DNA from: Lytechinus pictus
Taxonomy: Eukaryota
Length of the DNA stretch: 64,000 nucleotides
Direction: 5' to 3'
Assembly (NCBI RefSeq): GCF_037042905.1
Contig: NC_087250.1
Span: 13,642,001-13,706,000 of the forward strand
Positions 1 to 53,681 of this stretch are shown piece by piece (position 1 is the stretch's first letter; each line of letters begins with the position of its first letter). A model generated the notes under the pieces. That model worked only from the letters and a program-made list of their open reading frames with translations. It had not been told where the DNA came from and did no database searches. Made by a program: the position numbers and the translations under genes.

Positions 1-59
1 TCATCCCAGTCGGACCCTCCATCTACTATCCCTTGGTCAGAGTTTGGTAGGGACGGGGC

Positions 60-240
60 TGACCACCGGGCTACCTCCAGGTATGTCTCTTTTATCATGT
101 CGCCCGGTATGATTGGGGTTTTTTCTTTTCCTCCCTCGTAAAATGTGATGCGACAGCAAATCTTCCCATCCTGATCTTCTTCATAGGATGTTCGAGCATC
201 ATCGGATTTCGCACGGAGAGGACATTAATTAAGTAAAGGA
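60..240. repeat. Direct repeat copy of 1314-1490
   Basis: gaccaccgggc...gagaggacatt...aagtaaagga aligns between the two loci with scattered substitutions. Confidence 0.9.
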
Positions 241-551
241 TCCACCAATTAATTCCTCAAAAATCATTAGCTGCCTTGCTAGTGTGATCAATTTTTTTTT
301 CTTAAAGTTCAAAAGTTATTGAAATCATAAATATGAATATATTGTGTTTGATGTCAACAAACAACGTTCAAAGAATTAAATCATAATCACATCTTTAATG
401 TACCATAAAGATTGCAGCTCCAAGGTATATTATGAGAAGTTGTGAGTCAGTTGAGATTACAGTCACATTATTCAATATACTTCTTGTTTACCTTTATAAT
501 GACAAGTCACTGCGGGTTGTGTGTAGTTAACGAACACCTTTTTTTATTCGT

Positions 552-735
552 TAGATGTCTCCTGCAACACTAAACATCCATTCCGCAGTGACACTTGATG
601 GTGGGCAAGCTACTGACACTAAGATGGGGAAGGTTTGTTGTGACTGCTCCAATACTCCAAAACATTGCTGTTGAGTTTTGCAACTGGCTGCTGGAGATAG
701 ACTTCCAATTCGTGGGAAATTGACTTTTTAATGTC
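552..735 (-). mobile_element. hAT transposase C-terminal dimerisation-domain remnant
   Basis: ELEVYLQQP...VLEYWS, then after a frameshift CPPSSVTAEWMFSVAGDI (canonical P.SS..SER.FS.AG). Confidence 0.8.
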
Positions 736-1009
736 ACTTTGAGCAGGGGTCTCATCTTCATTATCAGATGTAGTTGGAGATGATTCAATCATGGCAGCTT
801 CCATTGCTGACACGAAGCTTGGACGATGTGAGTGTTGTGAAGGCAACTGGGTTGCTTGTTCGGGTGTATCTGTATCGGAAAGTTTGACGGCATCGTCAAC
901 ATTCTTCTCATTGTCAGAGAGTCCAACAACTGATGTTGAGATGTTTTATCCATTGCAACTGAACACTTAAAGTAGTTGTCCACGCTTCTACGTGTAGCTG
1001 ACTTGGGTA

Positions 1010-1235
1010 TGCAGTTCATGCATGGATGATGTTTTAATTGAAATTGCCACACTTTATCCATGCTACTCTGATTAATGAGGGCAAGGCCAGTGGTGTCTGT
1101 CTGGTTCCACATGGCATCTAACACAGCCTGGATAAGTCTACGGGTTTCCTTCACACCCATTGTTGGATGTCTACAATATTTTGCCAGTTCTGCTGTTGTG
1201 ATGCTCCCAGTGACTTGGGCATCTGTAGGTATTGA
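1010..1235 (-). mobile_element. Fragment of a DUF6729-type, transposase-associated ORF
   Basis: ITTAELAKYCRHPTMGVKETRRLIQAVLDAMWNQTDTTGLALINQSSMDKVWQFQLKHHPC resembles, from memory, the multicopy 'KHCRRRTRG.EET..LI...W..Q.KH..CI' family. Confidence 0.5.
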
Positions 1236-1916
1236 TAATAATAATAAGTTATTTAAGTAATTGGGTGTCAGAAGATGCTCAGCAACAGTTCCTTTGAATA
1301 TATGTATACATACTGACCACCGGGCTTCCTCCAGGTATGTCTCTTTTATCATGTCGCCCGGTGTGATTGGGGTTTTTTCTTTTCCTCCCTCGTACAAAGT
1401 GATGAGACCGCAAATCTTCCCGTCCTGATCTTCTTCATAGGATGTTCTGACATCATCGGATTTCACACGGAGAGGACATTAAGTAAAGGAAGTATGCATA
1501 CGGTATACGTACTGCAATGGCTCTCCTTTGCAAAAAAAGGCCTCTCGATTTCTCCTCACAAACTCCGCCATTTGATGTACCTGGTCTTCTATGAGGTTAC
1601 CATGTCTATTTTCTTGATTCTTCTGAAAGAAAAGTGTCAATTTGTCTTTACATTTTCCCTTTTCCCAATGAAAGTGATTTTCTCCATAAACAAAATATCA
1701 ATGTAATTAAAGTCATACTAAAAGTATAGTTATGCATCACCCACAGGAATTCCTAGCTACATCCTGGTGGGGCCTGGTGCCCTCCTGCTTGCTGCTCTGT
1801 TCGCAGACAATTAAAGGGGCATCTGCACAATCAGTATTGCAGTAAACTTTCAGTTTTGGTAGTTCATGGTGTCCTCTTGGCATTGTCCATCCAGTATGTC
1901 TTGAAGTAAGGTTTTA

Positions 1917-2315
1917 CAGACATGCCAACCATTCCTCTTTTTTTGCTGTGAATACACCAATACTTTTTTGTATGATTTGTTATCTTTTTTTTTAAATTTC
2001 CGATCATGGAGTTTGTACACAGCGCGTATAACTAGCGCCGGTCCGACAGTCCCAGTCCGGTAAAAATCACTGTCGGGCTAGTAACTTATTGCATAAAAAG
2101 AACAAGTAAATTCTTGCCTACGAGCACATGTTTAAAAGGGTGAATTATCAAGTTTTCAAGTAGTCATTTCACATGTTTTTTCACCGATCTCACTACAACA
2201 GGCTAGCAATTGTTACATTGAGACAAATTTCTAAAAAAATACTCTCTTTTTTGGTCAAAAAATACTTTTTCATCCTTCTAAGAATACTTTTTTTTATAGA
2301 AAGTTGGCAAGTCTG
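1917..2315. mobile_element. Non-autonomous hAT-like element with 6-bp TSD
   Basis: TIRs CAGACATGCCAAC / GTTGGCAAGTCTG, TSD GTTTTA on both sides. Confidence 0.75.
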
Positions 2316-2652
2316 GTTTTAGTCATTTTTCTTTTGGTAGCAAGTTACGCATACCTGCATGACATGCTCCTGCATGACATGCTCCTTGCGTGCTGCTTCT
2401 CTGCAAAGCTGACATTGGCGCTTGATCTTGGACCGACCCTTTTTTAATGAATGAGAGAGCAATCTCCATTTAAATATACTGGGATGCAGCCAAGAATATC
2501 ACTACATCAATACTTCAGAAAGCTTTGAAAAGTTGATGCCCGATATTATCCAACTGCACATCATCAAGCCAGGCAAATTCCGGAAACTGCAGGTGCCTAC
2601 TGGTGCTAGTGTTGTCTTTATCCAGTAATAACGTTAAAAACTGATGTACCAG

Positions 2653-2766
2653 CAGTGGTGGACCGTGACCCGGAGGAGACAATTGATTGGAGGGGCACTG
2701 TATTGTTTGTGAACAATGCTGTGCCCCTCCAATGCTTTGTCTTCTCCGGTCACGGCCCAGCCACTG
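2653..2766. mobile_element. Fold-back hAT-type MITE (whole-length hairpin)
   Basis: CAGTGG...CCACTG, arms complementary over ~55 nt, 8-bp TSD TGTACCAG/TATACCAG. Confidence 0.85.
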
Positions 2767-3461
2767 TATACCAGCATCGTGTGTGTATTCCAGATTCCTC
2801 TGCAAGTTTGGCTGCTTCAGTCAGACTTTCTCACCAGGCGTCCCTTTCTTGACCTAGCGGTTATGTTTACTCGAAGGCACCAAAGAACTCTGAAATACCA
2901 AAAAGAAATTGAGCGGGGGCAACGGTTGAGTCTCTGCAATCAGTTCTTCCAGTTGCCTGTCAAGATATTCTGCATCTGATATGGACAAGGCCAAGACAAT
3001 CAAATGTTTCACATAAATCTTTTTTCTTTTCTTTCCTCTCTATAAGCACAATCCCAATCTTGTAGAAAACAATGTATTTGCTATTAATAAATTCATATAA
3101 ATATAATTATATATCCTGTATAAAGTATGCATTTAACTATGATGACCAAATCATTTCAGCTTTTGGTTGTCATTTTGTGCGAATTCGGTGCTAGGGGTTC
3201 TATTTGTCACTTCTCCAGCCGAATCATGTGCAATAACTTCCACTACAACCAATTGAAAGTGTAGGTATGGCAGTTACCAACCCACAGTCCATTTTGGGAC
3301 CAGTAAAGACTCTGCAACATCTGTCCCAGTCGGTGATTTCCTATCTTTCTGGATCTTCTGTTATTGTTATTGATCTGTGCAATGTTTAGTGTATCCAGTA
3401 AAAAAAGTGATATGTTTAAAGTAGCATACTAGTAAACAATGTAACACTGAAATGTAACATA

Positions 3462-3672
3462 CCGTGAAAATCCTACTGTCGTGCGTGCTTCCAGGCCACC
3501 TGGCAACAACATTTGTAATCTTGTACTTGTAATCACAGATCAGTTGGACATTGAAGGACTGTCTCCCTTTCCTGTTTATATACACGTATTCATCTTCTCC
3601 TAGTGGGGATCCAAGTAAGTTTACATGTGTGCCATCAACCGCTCCAACGATGTTTGGAAATCTCGCTATCTC
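3462..3672 (-). mobile_element. PIF/Harbinger (HARBI1-like, DDE_Tnp_4) transposase fragment
   Basis: [13 protein letters not shown]...[17 protein letters not shown]...[15 protein letters not shown]. Confidence 0.92.
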
Positions 3673-3765
3673 AGTGGCTCAATCTAATATGGCTGAACAT
3701 TACTGTGGTCTATGTTCTTGTCTAGCAAGTATGGGGTATGTTTCAGGGTGTATCATTGAGGCTTA

Positions 3766-3933
3766 TACCTTGGTCACATTTGTTCTACGGCGGCCGTACG
3801 GCAAGTCGAAAATGGCCGTTTTAACATTGTTTGTACCAGCTACATGTATATATAGGTGGTGTTAGTAAAAATGAATAAAACGGTTGTTTTCGACTCGCCG
3901 TACGTCCGCCATAGAGCAAATGTGACCGTGGTA
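3766..3933. mobile_element. Fold-back Harbinger-type MITE
   Basis: ~58-bp inverted arms TACCTTGGTCACATTTG... / ...CAAATGTGACCGTGGTA, TTA TSD. Confidence 0.8.
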
Positions 3934-4324
3934 TTAGTATCCCCTTAAATTCTTCAATTATCTTTTCGTTGCCATGATGATGAGCCTGATGATGTTCATC
4001 TCTTCTGTACTGTACAGAAAGTCATCACAGTTTGTTCTGGATGAGAGTTTGCGAGTTGTCTTGAAAAGTGTATGTTTTCTGCGACTTTGCATGATGGCAT
4101 GGTGATGTTTTTCTTCCACGAATGCTGTGTCTAATCTCTGTTCTGTCTTAGCGATATACCTATGAAATAAAGCACTGTAATCTTTACCGTAGTCTATTTT
4201 CTTGTTTATAGCGAGTCTCGGGAAGTTTATTTCCTCCAAATTTTCCTACGGATACTCCGAGTTTGAGGCATTTGCCACAACTTGTGCGCTACATGTATGT
4301 CAATACAAAGGTATTGTTGGCTCT

Positions 4325-5270
4325 TTCCACTACAAGCGAATGCCTCGGAACATCAAGTTCAGCTCGAGCTCTGGCAAGCTCCCGTCGTTTGTTCCAGCTG
4401 TGGGATAAACCCACAACAATGTTCTTGCCCATCCCAGTTGCGTGACTTGTTTAGTTGTTGTTATGTTACAAACAATTGTGATTTGCTAGGTTGAGATTGT
4501 GCCCAAAGCAAATTAACCATGGCAACTCCAACCCTCCCATGAGACATGATCTTTGCACCATTGTCACTTGTCATGCACGCTAGTTTGAACTCGTCCAAGT
4601 TCCATTCGGCAAAAGCCTCCTTCAGTGCATCTCTGATATTGTCCACGGTGTGGTTTTCTGGAAAAAATGATGTTGCCAAACATCGGGAGATCAATTTCCA
4701 CTCCTTGGAGATGAAGTGGAAACTCATGTAAGGAGCCATGGTTGTATTCGACCACAGGTCCGTTGTTGCAGACAATTATTCTGCTTCCTCGACCTCTTCC
4801 TGAATTTTTGTGCGAACAGAGTTACAAAGAGACGAGAGAGCAGACTCCGTAAAATACTTTTTCCCTGGAAGTGTGTATCGGGAGTCAAATGCTTGTAGCA
4901 TTTCTCTAAATGCTGGCTTGTCCACCGTGTACATGGGGAGCATCCCTTTTGCTAGATACTTTTCCACACAGTCTGTCAAATTTTTCCACCTCCGATCATC
5001 ATGACTATATTTTGCTGCCCTAGCTTGAACATCAGTTAGCATCGGTTGTTGCGGCATTGAGGCGGATGATGATGTCCGTTTAGGTTGCCGTAATTCACTT
5101 GCTTGCTTTGGGTGTTTGCTTTTAAGATGAGACATGAAGTTCGATGTATTCCCTCCTATTGCATCACAACCACGTCCACAAAGTCTATAAATGGCCTTGT
5201 CTGGGTTAATGACTTTCCAATCTTCTCCACACTTGAACCCAAAATGTACACGAACGGGAGATGTTGCACC
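4325..5270 (-). mobile_element. hAT (ZBED1/Ac-like) transposase pseudogene fragment
   Basis: Degenerate BED finger (SPVRVHFG...GGNTSNFMSHLKSKHP), DKPAFREML...RYTLP, SATTDLWS, FPENHT..NI, TSDNGA, SHSWNKRREL; stops and frameshifts. Confidence 0.92.
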
Positions 5271-5274
5271 CTTT

Positions 5275-5860
5275 TTCTTTATGATGGAAATAGGCACATG
5301 CGATTTGTGTCCGTCGTATATCAATGTGTCCTTTCCCCTTCCTCCTCGCATCTACGAATGGAGTAAAGTGGCTTTTGACAACGTCTTCAAAGATGGTTGC
5401 GTTGCTCCACCCACTATCGCTTTATTTGCACCCTCGTCTTGGGAAGTGCACCTTCTCGGAACTTATCCGTTTTCTTCATTTTGCCGCAAGCTATCAGGGT
5501 TGTCAATGCAGATCATGGTGTCACTATGAACTGCGGCCTAGTGAGGGTCACCCTAGCCACAATCTTGACTGGCTTGTGCTCACATTTAAAGCCGACTTGC
5601 CTGCATTGAAGATTCTATCACTTTTAACCTCAAAGCCATACTTCTTGAGTATGGCACTGAGTTCATTGAAGTAACTTGTTATAAGATGCAGCTTTGATGC
5701 TCTTGCACGTGCCATGCTAAGTGAATGTGGCTTTACCAAGCGAAGAGAAGGCCATCTCTTCATGAATGACTGCAGTCGATTGAATGTCAGCCAACACTTG
5801 TCGGGGGGTCTATGCAGTAGTCGGCCAAGCTGATTTGCGAGGTCACTTCCAAGGCAGATA
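5275..5860 (-). mobile_element. pogo/Tigger-like (CENP-B HTH + DDE_1) transposase fragment
   Basis: FMKRWPSLRLVKPHSLSMARA...YFNELSAILKKY...RIFN, GWSNATIF, LIYDGHKSH. Confidence 0.85.
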
Positions 5861-6362
5861 ACCTGCAGGTTCATTAGGGAAATATTAAAAGTGAAAGTAT
5901 AAGAGATTGATAACAATATGCTCTCCATTTTATATTTGTCTAGTTTCCTTCTTTCTTTTCGCTCTTCTACCACTACATTCTTTTTCTCTACTGACACTAT
6001 TTTTGTTTTCTAAGATCATATAGTCATCTATAATCTTTGTTACATTTTTCTGTCGCATATCACAAACGGTTCATTGTATTGCGTCAGGATGCGTGGTTTT
6101 TATATTCATAAGTATTCAAATGCTTTATGGTGATATTGTTTTTATTGCATATGGATAGATCTAGTAAACATAGCTAGTAAAATATAGTTGCCGTTTACTG
6201 CATCCCAGAGGCTCTTCTTTTTCGCTTCCGAATTCAAAAAGCCAGGGCATTGCCTTTTTGCTTGCGCTGTGATGGCCATGAACACGTAATCAGTTTTTAA
6301 TGGCTTCTTAACCCGGTCTCCATTGAAGCTGTGCAGAACCTGTAATAGGGGCACTAGGGCTA

Positions 6363-6537
6363 CAGAGCTGCCAAGTAGTACGGACTTTTTATATTTAGTA
6401 CTGAAAAATGAGGAAAAATACTGATGGTTTCATGCAAAATACTGATTTCTAAAGTTCCAGTTTTATGTGTTGTCCTATGGAATTTCTTTGAAAATACTGA
6501 TTTCCACACCAAAATACTGTTCAGGTTAGCAGCTCTG
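6363..6537. mobile_element. Short hAT-like MITE with 6-bp TSD
   Basis: TIRs CAGAGCTGCCAA / TTAGCAGCTCTG, TSD GGGCTA on both sides. Confidence 0.85.
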
Positions 6538-6544
6538 GGGCTAG

Positions 6545-8660
6545 GCACCTCGACCCTCATTGGCTTCTTGGCCTGTTGGGCAGAATCCGAGGAGTCGGGC
6601 TGATCCGCAGAGGGTTGCGACTCAGCCCTTTACTTGAGAGTTTAGCCAGAGCCCAAACGAGTAGTCTCTTGTATAACAATACGTTGGACTGCCGGTGGGT
6701 TGGTTACCATCTCCGCCCATGAGACCCTCGCCAAGGGGCTCTCGTGCGGTGCAGTGCTCGCGCCTCCACTTTTCGACTGGCCTGGCTCTTTCGAGATTCA
6801 CGACCACCTGTCCCGGTACCGGGATTAGAGCTGCCATCCCGAAATTGGCGATATTCCAAGATGGAATTAATCATTCCCTTAGCTATCACCAAGTCCCTAT
6901 TGCAGGTGTAACGCAAGACCCCCTCAAATAATAGTATGCTGCCACCACAATAGTTTGAGCTCTCGATCAAGCATTATTTAACACTTGACCGTAATGAAGG
7001 ACTTTTCCTCGATGAGAACTTTAATTAAATGCCTAGTAAACCTCCAATCAGAATAGCCGTCTCATGATCCATAATATCGTAAAATACATAAAGATAAAAA
7101 AAAATTATTTAACAACAGATCAAATTATGTGGACTTCTTGGTGGGTCGTTCTTCTGGATAATGAGAGTCTGTTAATCTTCGTTTCAGTGAGTAGCCGTCT
7201 TTCGTTTTAACATAATATGATGTATCGATGGTGACCTTTGTCACAACTTGGATCTGTTCATCTGGACATGCTGGTAAATTAAGAGTTAAACATTTATTTC
7301 TATTGACAATTTTGAAATTTCTTATCTCTTTCTGTCTCTCTGATTTTCTGCCTCCAGTTTCCTCCTCTCCTCCAACTTCTTCCTCTCCTCTAATTGTCTC
7401 TCTTCTATCTTCTCTTTTAACAGCTTCTTTCCCTCTTCATCTAAGCGTTTCTCCTCTTCTCTATTCCTACTCTCCTCCAGTTTTTTTGCTCCTGGATCTC
7501 CTCATCTAGCTCTGTCTCCATCCTGTCTCTCCTATCCCTCTTCCATACTCTGTCGTCCTGGCTGTCCTACCTCTTTCTCCTTTCTTCTTCCACCGCTTTC
7601 AACCGCTTCCGTTCCTCTTCTATCTTTTCTTCCTGTGAACCAGAGGCCCTCCCTCCAGGAACTTAAAGTTCTGTGCCAGAATTCCCAGACCGCCCCATAT
7701 ATCTTCCAACATTTTGAGGAAAAGCTTCCCCAAGTAAAATTGTAGTAGTGCCATTCCTACTCCCAACGACACACAGCAGCGCCATGAGCCATTCTCCCGG
7801 TTCTGCATTGAAATGTTTACACATAAATTCATCTTCCTCTTATCTTTTGATATCCCATCCACCACCCGCAAACCCCTTCCATCATGTTAATTATCCCCCC
7901 TTTTTTTCTTTTCCACTGGCCTTATCATACCAGTTGATTATCCTGCCTAGAATTAAGAGAAGTCGTGGAGCTCGGGAATGTTTTTCCCATATTCTTAGGC
8001 CCATTCTTAGAAGCTGGAATTACGGCAGGGGTCGCTAATATGTCCCTTGTTAGTAACATAATTTCCCTCGCCTGAAATCTTATTCTGCTTTCCTTTTCAT
8101 TTTTCTTCCTTTCCCCATTTTTTTTGCCAAAAGATACCATCGGTCCAATATTCCTATTCATGTTATGGCCAGTTTTATCGTTGGTATTTTATTAATCGAT
8201 CTCTTAACCCAGGGTTCCTTTATGGACGAGTTTGCCCCAAGAACTGTAGTCACACAAGACCGCACTATATCCCCGCCAACGGGGTCATACTCTCAAATGC
8301 ACTAGTCTTGACACGTGATCACAGCCAGAGGGAGAACTCGAAGCCAATTTTCCGTCCTTATCTCTCCTTCGGTCGGGTGTTAGGCATAGAATGAGTAATT
8401 TGGTTGCCTAACATCCCTCCTAAGCTCATATTTTGATTGAGCTCCACTACACTGTGGCAGTGGTTTCAGTCCTGTGCCCTCAGGTCGAGCTGCTGTGTCC
8501 AGCTCGCCATCATTCTTAGTTCCTTTAGACAATTCTGCAGCATCAGTCCTCCATTCGCGGACTGCCTCTTCTAGAGCGTCCTGTATCATGTCCTCTCACC
8601 CGGAGCGGGTTCGTTCGGGCCGAGGCCTCTTAGGGAAAGTTATATACTGTTATGGGTCAA
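6545..8660 (-). mobile_element. Degenerate retroelement-like remnant (possibly LTR/Gypsy gag and pol-end pieces)
   Basis: Broken minus-strand frames with an E/R/K-rich coiled-coil stretch (7330-7640) and an ORF ending YELRRDVRQPNY (8380-8589), reminiscent of Gypsy pol termini; no RT/IN motif seen. Confidence 0.35.
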
Positions 8661-9539
8661 GGGTCTTATAGTCCAAAATATTCATGCCATCTTTTTGTTC
8701 AGTTCATTTATTTATTTATTCATTTCTAAAAAAAGAATGTGTGCAGATATACATCGAATGTACATGTATACATCAATAATTGAAAATTAAAACATGCAAA
8801 AAACAACTTGAAAATTAATGCAAATGATATTATATGTGTATGAAAAGGCCTGTGTAATAGATATGAAAAATGAAATTGGAGGACTTAAATAAAGCCAATA
8901 GTGGCCTTGTGGGGTAAAGCCTCCTAAAATAATAAATGATAATTAGGAAGCTAGTACATATAATTGATCTCTGGCATCTCTCAACTACAAAGGGTGTTTT
9001 CAAGAATTTACTTCTCATAGGTCTGATCATTGGAGGTCGTGAGGTCAAATGTCACAGGGGTCTCTTTGACGACAATATATTTTTTTATTGGGTGCTCAAA
9101 ACTGATTCACAAGGTACAAAATACAGGTTTATACTAGTTAGATAAGTGAAGCAAACTTTTTAAAATGCTGTGTAATCTTATCATGTTTTGGAACAATAAG
9201 ATATTCAGATCTATACTTCATCTTAATGAAGGAAAGAATGGAATGAAAATTAGGCTTTTTATTTTTATGAAAATATCTTGTTCTCCCCAAAACAAAATAC
9301 TGTTTGACAGGGTGGATTCAGGATTTTCCAAGGGGGGGATTTGACAACCTCCCGCCCCCCTCCCCCCCCCCCCATAAAAAAGCAGTAATTGGAGGGTCAT
9401 TTTCTTCCAGGTGAAATTTGACCAGCCAAAAAAAAGGGATTGGGGTCCTGACTCATGTATGCATATGGAAGTGATAATTGGGGTCATGTATTAAGTTTAA
9501 AGGTCACAGATGTCAGTATTTCTAGAAGTTTGGTGTTAA

Positions 9540-10111
9540 AGGAGAATGAAACCCTTGAAACCAGCTGAATCCATATCAAAGAAACATATTGTTGAAAGTT
9601 TGAGGAAGATTGAATGAATAATAAGAAAGTTATGAGCATTTGAATATTGAGATCACTAATGCCATGTAGATCCTCCCATTGGCAATGCGACCAAGATCTG
9701 TGATGTCACACACGTACAACTCCCTCATTACTTTAGTACTTATTTCACTTATATTCTCACTTTTCTAGAGTTCTATCACAAGGTGAGGTGTTCTCTTTAT
9801 GAGAAGACAAGTACAGAGGTTTCACAACATTATATCATTGATGAATGGTTTGTCATATGATTAGAATGAGCAAAAAGAGATGTTTTGGGGTATATTTTCA
9901 GTGTCCAAAAGGGGAGAGTTGTTCATCTGTGACATCATAGATCTTGGTCGCATTGCCAATGGGAGGATCTCCATAGCATTAGTGATCTCGACATTCAAAT
10001 GCTCATAACTCTTCTATTGCTAGTCCTATTTTACTCAAACTTTTGTTGATCTTATTCTTTGATTTTTCTGCTTTCACAAAAGCTAACTTGCTCCAAGAGT
10101 TTCATTCTCCT
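9540..10111. mobile_element. TTAA-targeting fold-back MITE (Kolobok-like)
   Basis: TTAA|AGGAGAATGAA...TTCATTCTCCT|TTAA with long internal inverted repeats; near-identical inverted copy at 26735-27309. Confidence 0.88.
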
Positions 10112-10921
10112 TTAAATATATTTCTGATCTGGCAATGGTGGTCTATGTATAGTAGTTTAATACTGTATAATGTTATTGAATGTCACAGAGTGATGTCTAT
10201 TTGATGTACCATTTGTGCTTCCATGCTTTCAAAAAGCAAATTGTGTTCTTGGTTGAATACTTTACTTGTTTATGTTTTTGTTAATTAATATTATTTTATT
10301 ATTATCATTGAATTATCTTTCTAACACCATAGTCAGTACTCGGACAGTGCAATTAATGTCAAGCATAGAATGTAGATTGGACAATAAATAGATTGTATAA
10401 TTAAGCAATGTGAATATACATGTACCTTAATACAAAAATTGCTTCCATAACATTGCTGTATTTAGGGATCACAGTGACTGTCATCTCTTTATTGTTATGT
10501 CTTCACAGAAATGCAAACGAAATTTTGTGTCTTATTATAATACAGAATATTTGAATACATGTACAGGTAAAATAATTTCCATGTTTGGAGAAAGTTGTGT
10601 TTATGGAATTGTAATTTATGGGGAGGGGGGAGGGGGTTGCTTGCATAGAAAATGGTAAAATTTAAACTTTAAAATCAACAATCTCTGTATTACTGCTGGA
10701 GGGATTTTCACCAAACCTTAATTGATGTGTTTCTTTCACTTTCCTGTTTCTATAAAAATCGATCTGAATCAAGATTGGGTGAACCTCCCCTTTAAAGATA
10801 TCCACTTTTCCTGTCATTTTGACTTGTTTGAAATACACTGTATTTTTACCTAAACTTTTATACATTTATGCAACAAAATTGCATGATACTGTTTAAATTA
10901 AATATGTTTGGGTCTATCCTG

Positions 10922-19597: not shown

Positions 19598-25795
<6,198 letters not shown>

Positions 25796-26734: not shown

Positions 26735-27309
26735 AGGAGAATGAAACTCTTGGAGCAAGTTAGCTTTTGTGAAAGCAGAAAAATCAAAGAATAAGATCAA
26801 CAAAAGTTTGAGTAAAATAGGACTAGCAATAGAAGAGTTATGAGCATTTGAATGTCGAGATCACTAATGCTATGGAGATCCTCCCATTGGCAATGCGACC
26901 AAGATCTATGATGTCACAGATGAACAACTCTCCCCTTTTGGACACTGAAAATATACCCCAAAACATCTCTTTTTGCTCATTCTAATCATATGACAAACGA
27001 TTCATCAATGATATAATGTTGTGAAACCTCTGTACTTGTCCTCTCATAAAGAGAACACCTCACCTTGTGATAGACTCTATAAAAGTGAGAATATAAGTGA
27101 AATAAGTACTAAAGTAATGACGTAGTTGTACGTGTGTGACATCACAGATCTTGGCCGCATTGCCAATGGGAGGAACTTCATGGCATTAGTGATCTCAATA
27201 TTCAAATTCTCATAACTTTCTTATTATTCATTCAACCTTCCTCAAACTTTCAACAATATGTTTCTTTAATTTTTCTCTTTGATATGGATTCAGCTGATTT
27301 CATTCTCCT
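26735..27309. mobile_element. TTAA fold-back MITE, same family as 9540-10111, opposite orientation
   Basis: TTAA TSD, AGGAGAATGAA TIR. Confidence 0.88.
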
Positions 27310-34242: not shown

Positions 34243-51626
<17,384 letters not shown>

Positions 51627-52353
51627 CTTGAATTAGGGTGTGTCTATCAACAATCAAATATTGTAAAATAATTTTAATGAAAGATAAAGTGATCAACAAA
51701 ATCTTACTTTCCATCACAAAATGCTAGATTATGATGGTATTTTTGCAAGTTAAATCTGCCGGCAAAAAATGGCTAGTGGCAATTTGCTCAAAGTTGGCTG
51801 CCTGCATTGCCATTGGCCAGATACTCTGCTCTGCCTCTCTCATCAGCTCATGTGTCACCCAGGGGGGGGGGGGAGTCAAATGTATTGCTGTACACATGCG
51901 TGACCAAATTATTTCCAAACACCCCCTAAACAATTTTTTCTGTGTGTGCAAAATAAACAAATTATTAGCATGTTTAGTGGGCTTTATTTACACAGTCTGG
52001 CTCCTAAATAAGTTATCGGCAGAACATGACCCAAGGTAACTAAAAAGCTTGGCCCAAGCCTTGGGGAAAAACATACCCTAAACACATTTACCTAGTCTTA
52101 AAAAAAAAGCTTTGGAAAAAATTCCCTCAACTCTAAATGTTTGACCCCGTGATTGACCATTGACCAGTCTTTAAAAACCAACCTTTTTTTGGTAAATCAG
52201 TGTTTTTGATACCCTTAACAAGTGCATGCGCGGCCCGCGGCCAAAACTGAAAAAAAAAACACCCCTTTAAACACGTTTTTGGGGTCACGGCTCACATATG
52301 TGTGCTTCTGGGCTCCGGCCCGCGCTCTCTGGGTTAGTAGACCTAGCATGCCT

Positions 52354-53608: not shown

Positions 53609-53681
53609 GGCCCTGTGGCCCAATGGATAAGGCATCTGACTACGAATCAGGGGATTCCAGGTTCGAGTCCTGGCAGGGTCG
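53609..53681 (+). tRNA. tRNA-Arg (anticodon ACG)
   Basis: 73-nt cloverleaf GGCCCTG...CAGGGTCG, anticodon arm TCTGA-CT-ACG-AA-TCAGG, T-loop GGTTCGAGTCC, poly-T Pol III terminator immediately after. Confidence 0.96.

Follow-up and report, generated by a model that had tools for sequence, protein, structure and literature searches.

The block of transposable element (TE) pieces that opens the analyzed window, a 64,000-nucleotide stretch of Lytechinus pictus DNA, bears all of its polar pieces in minus sense: eight of eight solid and two of two weak pieces, with none in plus sense. It covers ~12.5 kb, from about -3857 (upstream of the window) to about +8600. We give roughly even weight to the reading that it is an ordinary intergenic TE graveyard of old insertions, nested and trimmed by deletion. 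At least eight unrelated families would have inserted in or next to one another—represented by three LTR-retroelement pieces, the 5' end of a 2A-type LINE, and DUF6729-family, Harbinger, hAT, and pogo pieces. Termini and most of the bodies would then have been lost by deletions with end-joining-type junctions, and miniature elements (MITEs) would have inserted later. What is directly observed in this account are the identities, strands, junctions, and ages of the pieces and the single-copy status of the whole; the shared orientation would be chance or a weakly selected by-product, and the block would probably serve no dedicated function.

Identity and strand of the pieces

The solid pieces comprise four DNA-transposon-like fragments, three from LTR elements and one from a LINE. 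Among the first group, a DUF6729-family (TE-like) protein fragment occupies 864-1325(-). A phmmer search with the ORF 792-1478(-) against 1.84 billion representatives returned 112 matches (best E 1.6e-25, residues ~83-168). PF20499 (DUF6729) is present in nine of the 14 longer matches scanned, and all 100 tblastn alignments from the phmmer matches fall within 864-1325 on the minus strand. Pfam run directly on the piece gave nothing; the fragment corresponds to a region ~170-200 aa downstream of the DUF6729 domain. On the strength of these relatives, the DUF6729-like stretch that an earlier note on this DNA had placed at 1010-1235 is real and in minus sense. At 552-945(-) lies a frameshifted remnant that resembles the C-terminal dimerisation region of hAT transposases. 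Here, Dimer_Tnp_hAT reaches only 14.9 bits (E 0.024) on the ORF 619-945(-), under the Pfam cut-off of 21.4 bits, and motifs of hAT type in the neighbouring frame were recognized by eye only. Hence, for the hAT dimerisation region claimed at 552-735 the minus sense stands, whereas its identity is weak. A single protein comprising both pieces was rejected, as none of the 14 long matches carries a hAT domain and the 100 tblastn alignments all stay inside the DUF6729-family fragment.

The remaining three DNA-transposon-like pieces could each be tied to copies elsewhere in the genome. At 3405-3673(-), a Harbinger/PIF transposase fragment has kept no more of its DDE domain than the N-terminal part (DDE_Tnp_4, E 4.3e-11 in Pfam), and 3451-3672 shares 85% amino acid identity with a fuller copy (L025), which bears out the Harbinger piece proposed at 3462-3672. 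The BED-finger hAT transposase fragment at 4323-5277(-) corresponds to coding exon 1 of its family: it starts ~8 codons past the ATG and ends 5-6 nt beyond the intron donor. Its DNA is 88-89% identical to three genome copies, and in one of these relatives (L002) the BED/RNaseH and dimerisation ORFs are near-intact; the ZBED-like hAT suggested at 4325-5270 is therefore genuine. The pogo-like fragment at 5290-5918(-), reaching from the Tc5-type HTH to the middle of the DDE domain and suggested before for 5275-5860, found no match in Pfam. It is 72% identical to a copy (L032) whose ORFs are pogo-like by reading of the sequence, with an HTH, a Tc5-type HTH, and a DDE domain containing 'LIYDGHKSH'. 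A further weak hAT-like remnant (RNase-H region) lies at 8506-8592(-), where a 29-aa alignment to the hAT protein of L002 shows 41% identity (tblastn, E 0.012).

What had been described merely as a retroelement-like stretch is a Glu/Lys/Arg-rich fragment of an LTR-element 3' ORF at 7073-7634(-), recognized by its match to a copy (L034) in which this ORF comes after the integrase ORF. The orientation bias goes on beyond the window, as the earlier note had suggested checking: the 3.9 kb upstream hold three further minus-sense retroelement pieces—two from LTR elements and the 5' end of a 2A-type LINE.

Thus, every piece named before is indeed on the minus strand, and host exons are absent from 1-8660, as had been stated. 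The pieces also lack their own termini; a tblastn search over 124 kb found neither hAT exon 2 nor the remainders of pogo and Harbinger. A six-frame Pfam scan of 1-9002 with stops read as X points the same way, with matches in two of nine minus-frame chunks and none in the nine plus-frame chunks. Before any correction for the choice of this window from a very large scan, the nominal chance of full co-orientation is 2 x 0.5^8 = 0.008 for the eight solid pieces. Counting the two LTR-element pieces upstream as a single event gives 0.016, and including the weak remnants gives 0.002. A neutral model does not predict such complete co-orientation, which is a point against the graveyard.

It is this co-orientation that invites the alternative of a small uni-strand piRNA source. 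A plus-strand transcript—from its own promoter or by read-through from the upstream gene CTBS—would run antisense through all pieces and might give rise to piRNAs against several families. This would agree with eight of eight solid pieces sharing one orientation that runs 3.9 kb past the window start, with the many unrelated families in a unit of single copy, and with a host animal that has a PIWI pathway. Nevertheless, we regard such a source as unlikely, for reasons of age, transcription, and size given below.

Age, junctions, and later insertions

By sequence, the pieces are old: identity to the nearest copies lies at 72-89%. Compared with the best few copies per family, perfect 26-mers are found in 0/652 windows for pogo, 4/244 for Harbinger, 16/1481 for the Gypsy-like gag that is one of the compared pieces in the block, 125/938 for hAT, and 86/413 for the LTR-element 3' ORF—a share of 0-13%, and 21% for the last. 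Windows with at most three mismatches to the nearest fetched copies, again the best few per family, make up 6-68%. Such divergence may speak against the piRNA source.

Two of the joins are direct. The pogo piece meets the hAT piece within 12 nt, with a frame open across the join (ORF 4776-5351, 191 aa), and between the LINE and LTR-element pieces lies 1 nt, with ~2 nt of shared letters. Direct joins of this kind between internal pieces are typical of deletion by end joining, and are in line with the graveyard. One feature is at odds with it: the hAT piece ends no more than 6 nt from the splice donor of its family, which random deletion does not predict.

The same junctions can be read differently. 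The mosaic might stem wholly or partly from a single event, or a small number of them, in which sense strands are copied, either by reverse transcription that switches template from one TE transcript to another or by patchwork synthesis in break repair, and co-orientation would then follow automatically. Unrelated internal pieces joined directly in the same sense, a hAT piece made of one exon, and a LINE piece consisting of the 5' end only would all suit such an origin. Normal LINE copies are 5'-truncated, the opposite of what is seen here. However, the similarity of the hAT piece extends 5-6 nt into the intron, which makes a spliced RNA template unlikely, and the 3' (low-coordinate) end of the block has no poly(A) tract, as there is no T-run on the plus strand. 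Neither hallmark of a chimeric retrocopy, a 3' poly(A) tail or spliced templates, is therefore present. Moreover, only two joins are direct, with hundreds of unassigned bases between the other pieces, and divergence from the nearest copies varies widely among the pieces—a measure that does not date the event. All in all, we consider a copying origin very unlikely.

Around and between the old pieces of the presumed graveyard lie repeats to which no strand is assigned. A local direct repeat (59-244 and 1313-1498; 91% identical, 1254 nt apart) encloses the DUF6729-family and hAT C-end pieces. A short interspersed repeat of ~105 bp at 1716-1821 is 83-91% identical to many copies (best 40 of 253 candidates scored). 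The element at 1917-2315 (best 40 of 4931 candidates scored), aligned with six copies, is a high-copy MITE without polarity because it carries 13-nt terminal inverted repeats, CAGACATGCCAAC and GTTGGCAAGTCTG; these also rule out a SINE. Two palindromic MITEs follow, a young one at 2653-2766, whose copies match it at up to 97% identity (best 40 of 947 candidates scored), and one of ~175 bp at 3762-3937 that matches both strands (best 40 of 3349 candidates scored). Further repeats, found by genome matches, are one of ~100 bp at 5924-6024 (45 candidates), a high-copy one of ~157 bp at 6361-6520, and a piece at 6927-7071 with copies on contig C1 at 88% identity. With identities of up to 97% to their copies, the MITEs are later arrivals.

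Genomic setting and transcription

The block lies in a spacer flanked by two convergent genes. CTBS, on the plus strand, has its last coding exon end at -10274, 6.4 kb ahead of the block, and a MAP1LC3-like gene on the minus strand has its last exon at ~19.6 kb of the window. Among ORFs of at least 70 aa in the 124 kb searched (136 upstream and 139 in the window), an RVT_1 ORF at -44 kb is the sole coding TE piece outside the block. A provisional library built from 166 ORFs of the fetched loci, small and biased to families already recognized, likewise detected no additional polar piece beyond it, just MITE-derived frames. In an Rfam scan of the window, a tRNA at 53609-53681 was the only match.

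As a unit, the block is single copy, with relatives elsewhere only for individual pieces. A genome search with the whole 8660-base query gave, as a unit, the self-match alone, and for 1-1690 of the window the one candidate in the genome was itself. Terminal repeats bracketing the block, inverted or direct, were not found. Both results reject a Pack-type or Helitron composite; a mosaic that is multicopy as one such element, named in the earlier note as what would refute its piRNA reading, is hence not what the genome holds. Truncated unrelated families, a unit of single copy, and younger insertions inside it are the hallmarks of a graveyard, and all three are found.

Base composition sets the block apart from its surroundings. 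Its G+C content is 0.385-0.46 compared with 0.31-0.37 in the flanks, and A exceeds T on the minus strand along most of its length. Together, these two features hint that the remaining unclassified stretches are also minus-sense coding remnants, a hint that counts against the graveyard. Several minus-strand frames are moreover still open over 100-229 aa, which likewise counts against it. The 229-aa ORF gave nothing usable against the Protein Atlas (best score 0.87, unrelated EF-hand clusters).

Could ordinary plus-strand transcription, by a long 3' extension of CTBS or an unannotated non-coding RNA, have shaped this bias? Sense insertions, with the splice and poly(A) signals they introduce, would be purged by selection, while antisense ones would stay. 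An antisense excess of TEs inside transcription units is a general pattern, and the TE sense in the block is indeed opposite to that of the upstream CTBS. However, the coding part of CTBS ends well before the block, and from the block onward to the MAP1LC3-like gene no exon on the plus strand came to light. Poly(A) hexamers number 15 on the plus strand of the block compared with 10.5 +/- 3.0 expected, so that the depletion looked for is absent and there is no sign of selection for read-through. We therefore hold this by-product explanation to be quite unlikely. The undepleted hexamers also count against a piRNA source read from the plus strand, and if transcription instead entered from the MAP1LC3-like gene on the minus strand, the RNAs would be sense rather than antisense.

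Comparison with known systems

With an ordinary nested TE graveyard, the block shares old, truncated, unrelated insertions, deletion junctions, later MITEs, and a unit of single copy. It departs from a neutral nest in one respect: mixed orientations are expected there, whereas 0 of 10 polar pieces are in plus sense here. Pack-type and Helitron composites likewise pack internal fragments of unrelated genes in one orientation, but they are multicopy units with defined termini, in contrast to a single-copy block without flanking terminal repeats.

Flamenco and flam-like clusters of Drosophila resemble the block in that truncated TE pieces of many families lie on one strand without host exons, as far as the account in PMC10643416 describes them. 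The overwhelming placement of TE pieces on one strand, typical of such clusters, is found here as well. In size, the two are far apart: clusters of the flamenco type extend over hundreds of kilobases, the flam-like example in that account being a Gypsy-enriched locus of ~560 kb (PMC10643416), whereas the block runs for ~12.5 kb, from -3857 to ~8600, and ends on both sides. Flamenco-type clusters are also described as Gypsy-driven (PMC10643416), with dominance of the Gypsy family and ERVs, while LTR elements provide three of the eight solid pieces of the block, a LINE one, and DNA-transposon-like elements four, and its pieces are old. Finally, the Drosophila clusters possess a discrete promoter, and small-RNA sequencing has validated them (PMC10643416), whereas the block is known from its sequence alone. 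Size, age, and poly(A) hexamers—the sequence features other than co-orientation—do not favour a piRNA source.

If the block were such a source nonetheless, it would be a compact uni-strand one of an echinoderm, built half from DNA-transposon pieces instead of Gypsy and read from a plus-strand transcript downstream of CTBS, a possibility to which we assign a low probability. To our knowledge, no uni-strand cluster has been mapped in a sea urchin before, and a limited literature search found none, so that, if true, this would be the first. Should piRNAs be made, the block would offer a concrete sea-urchin locus for testing how DNA transposons are archived for silencing in a non-vertebrate deuterostome, and it would mean that one-way archives of kilobase scale exist outside insects. 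Should none be made, it would be a warning that eight to ten fully co-oriented TE pieces can arise without function in a large scan, and orientation alone would therefore be unfit for calling piRNA clusters.

Sea urchins themselves provide the last comparison. Although they come from a different species and nothing ties them to the block, the 28-nt piRNA-like RNAs of sea-urchin gonad—as reported in a review (PMC13666137, on Wei et al. 2012)—belong to the same animal group, are clustered, and match DNA transposons as well as retrotransposons.

Setting and extent of the block

The block of transposon pieces spans about −3857 to 8600 (12.5 kb) in an assembly of 811.7 Mb and 368 contigs; coordinates of 0 and below are counted back from the window start, window position w being position 10000 + w of the fetched locus L011. 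Upstream lies the CTBS (di-N-acetylchitobiase) gene on the plus strand (−20444 to −10274), whose seven coding exons are 82–100% identical to a 413-aa Lytechinus pictus protein, and downstream lies a MAP1LC3-like gene on the minus strand, with an exon in the ORF at 20783–21262 and the end of its last coding exon near 19600. Hence, the block sits in a spacer of ~30 kb between convergent sea urchin genes. A kinesin-2-like gene follows on the minus strand (45966–51632), with a tRNA gene a few kb away (53609–53681, plus strand; Rfam RF00005, 58.9 bits). Going upstream from −3857, MITE-like repeats and a tandem repeat array (period ~190 nt) come before CTBS is reached; the array covers −9984 to −7743 (L011:16–2257) and the end of the fetched locus L012. 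The repeat units code for copies of the C-terminal 24–48 residues of the last CTBS exon, and tblastn matches fall at −10158, −9962, −9843, and −7954.

G+C is 0.385–0.46 from −4 kb to +9 kb versus 0.31–0.37 in the flanks (0.31–0.41 back to −20 kb), and A is in excess over T on the minus strand across most of the block. The analysis covered 124 kb, made up of the window and the 60 kb before it (L016–L011). In the rest of this stretch, no other transposon domain was found in ORFs of at least 70 aa—136 of 136 upstream ORFs within fetched loci, leaving out 7 that span locus borders, and 139 of 140 window ORFs from 8833 on—except for a minus-strand RVT_1 ORF on the far side of CTBS, near −44 kb. An improvised library of 166 ORFs drawn from the fetched loci gave no additional piece outside the block. 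The window contains three or more members of a MITE family whose 155-nt inverted arms are 81% complementary (9536–10115, 24229–24615, and 26833–27220), and one arm matches a contig C3 copy at 99% identity. The same contig carries, at L055:381–1427, an open 349-aa piggyBac-like transposase fragment, recognized by eye, which adjoins a decayed LTR element. A 60-nt piece at 8630–8688 is 85–89% identical to sequences paired 5.4–6.6 kb apart on six contigs; these could be terminal repeats of an element, and the one interior examined holds a peptide-repeat ORF, not gag.

Transposon pieces and their orientation

The earlier note had read window 1–8660 as a mosaic of minus-sense transposon fragments, and the pieces that it named are all present on that strand, displaced by no more than a few tens of bases from the positions it gave. 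The Harbinger piece (3451–3672) matches Pfam DDE_Tnp_4 (E 4.3e-11) and shares 85% amino acid identity with a fuller genomic copy, L025. For the pogo piece (5290–5918), a Pfam search gave no match; it is 72% identical to the copy L032, whose ORFs are pogo-like by eye (HTH, Tc5-type HTH, and DDE), and tblastn places Tc5 residues 5–109 and DDE residues 3–107 of L032 on 5916–5317. Pfam likewise gave no match for the ORF at 792–1478. Nevertheless, the earlier assignment to the DUF6729 family was right, although the domain itself is absent: phmmer against 1.84 billion representatives returned 112 matches (best E 1.6e-25, residues ~83–168), PF20499 is present in 9 of the 14 longer matches scanned, with the matched stretch ~170–200 aa downstream of the domain, and all 100 tblastn alignments of these proteins to the block fall at 864–1325 on the minus strand. 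A local direct repeat of 186 nt (59–244 and 1313–1498, 91% identical) brackets this piece together with the hAT C-terminal one. The latter, claimed as a hAT dimerisation region, holds up in its minus sense, but the match is weak (E 0.024, below the Pfam cut-off); a second weak hAT-like match lies at 8506–8592 on the minus strand (E 0.012). When 1–9002 was searched with Pfam in six frames, 2 of the 9 minus-frame chunks gave matches and none of the 9 plus-frame chunks did.

The retroelement-like stretch could be placed at 7073–7634 on the minus strand, where an ORF shares 88–91% amino acid identity with a Glu/Lys/Arg-rich ORF 3′ of the integrase ORF in locus L034. A relative on contig C8 adjoins gag-like ORFs. 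There (C8:1882376–1887471; L030, L031, and L033), a gag-like ORF and a Glu/Lys/Arg-rich 3′ ORF recur in tandem every ~1.45–1.7 kb, and the fetched stretch contains no pol ORF of at least 100 aa.

Upstream of the window, the orientation bias persists for 3.9 kb with three further polar pieces—fragments with a readable strand—all of minus sense. A LINE 5′ leader with the first codons occupies −23 to −283; in all four genomic copies examined, this piece immediately precedes the LINE ORF on its 5′ side, in the same orientation, and a 2A-like DVETNPGP motif in the ORF and an endonuclease-like ORF were read by eye. In this family (L057:1760–2974, L058, L059, and L060), the first ORF bears DVETNPGP and a zinc-finger-like stretch, is followed by the endonuclease-like ORF, and shows 94–100% protein identity among the four copies. 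The C-terminal end of an integrase and a 3′ ORF of another LTR element follow at −285 to −981 (176-aa ORF, 41% identity, E 1.3e-21). The stretch from −2539 to −3857 is the 5′ part of a Gypsy-like element (gag residues 14–397 and pol residues 1–76) and is 76% identical at the nucleotide level to the apparently intact copies L042–L045; additional 5′-leader pieces occupy −1930 to −1474.

The earlier observation is thus confirmed and extended. All eight solidly identified polar pieces (Gypsy-like gag, LTR-element integrase/3′ ORF, LINE 5′ end, DUF6729 family, Harbinger, hAT exon 1, pogo, and LTR 3′ ORF) and both weak ones are on the minus strand. The two-sided probability of such co-orientation is 0.008 for eight pieces, 0.016 with the two upstream LTR-element pieces as one event, and 0.002 with the weak pieces added—all nominal values, as the window was chosen for this pattern from a very large scan. 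The high-copy repeats of the block have no usable polarity: a MITE with 13-nt terminal inverted repeats (1917–2315), palindromic MITEs (2653–2766 and 3762–3937), and otherwise short repeats. That antisense pieces survived within an unannotated plus-strand transcription unit might account for the layout, which we consider quite unlikely.

Joins, age, and origin of the block

The pieces lack their own termini, as the earlier note had stated for most of them; every one is internal, and the rest of hAT, pogo, and Harbinger was not found in the 124 kb. Over its full length, the 8660-base query matches only itself, and window 1–1690 has no other candidate anywhere in the genome. The mosaic is therefore single copy as a unit, and a Pack-type or Helitron composite, which the earlier note had named as a result that would refute its reading, is rejected.

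Two joins are direct. The pogo end (5290) and the hAT start (5277) are separated by 12 nt that resemble both partners, with an ORF (4776–5351, 191 aa) running open across; LINE and LTR element meet at −283/−285, where a single base is interposed and ~2 nt are common to both. Both joins are of the kind left by deletion through end joining, and both would fit template switching as well, one route by which the mosaic could have arisen in one or a few copying events. Overall, such an origin by copying is very doubtful. The hAT piece (4323–5277) is 88–89% identical to three copies. Its copy L002 has a 370-aa BED/RNase-H ORF and, ~400 nt apart, a 301-aa ORF with the dimerisation region at its end. 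The piece corresponds almost exactly to coding exon 1, starting ~8 codons past the ATG, and its similarity ends 5–6 nt beyond the GTAAGT donor of the L002 intron. Random deletion does not explain this match; since the similarity extends into intron sequence, a spliced RNA is unlikely to have been the template. In L002 (C5, 190–2609), the intron of roughly 400 nt is bounded by a consensus donor (GTAAGT) and an acceptor of the polypyrimidine-AG type; L002 and the C31 copies L003 and L004 are 92% alike over 3.6 kb, two of them in tandem 3 kb apart.

Relative to their nearest genomic copies, the polar pieces show 72–89% identity. In perfect 26-mers shared with the best copy, pogo has 0 of 652, Harbinger 4 of 244, the Gypsy-like gag 16 of 1481, hAT 125 of 938, and the LTR 3′ ORF 86 of 413. 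The MITE at 2653–2766 arrived later, as its identity to other copies reaches 97%. We give about even chances to an ordinary transposon graveyard, in which deletions would have trimmed nested old insertions to internal pieces and the one-way layout would reflect chance or weak selection; some other explanation takes what the readings discussed here leave.

A uni-strand piRNA source, as proposed by the earlier note from the sequence, is an unlikely candidate. The co-orientation and the many unrelated families would suit it, and the available text of one report describes PIWI and clustered piRNA-like RNAs in this animal host group (PMC13666137). Against it, or at least lending it no support, every piece is old, and any read-through from the MAP1LC3-like gene would yield sense, not antisense, RNA. 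The plus strand carries 15 poly(A) hexamers versus 10.5 ± 3.0 expected; hence, there is no visible selection for read-through. The locus would be of interest only if RNA shows small RNAs from one strand. The comparison with a flam-like locus, in the available text of its description ~560 kb long and Gypsy-driven (PMC10643416), also does not favour a piRNA source: the L. pictus block measures 12.5 kb, and half of its solid pieces are DNA-transposon-like.
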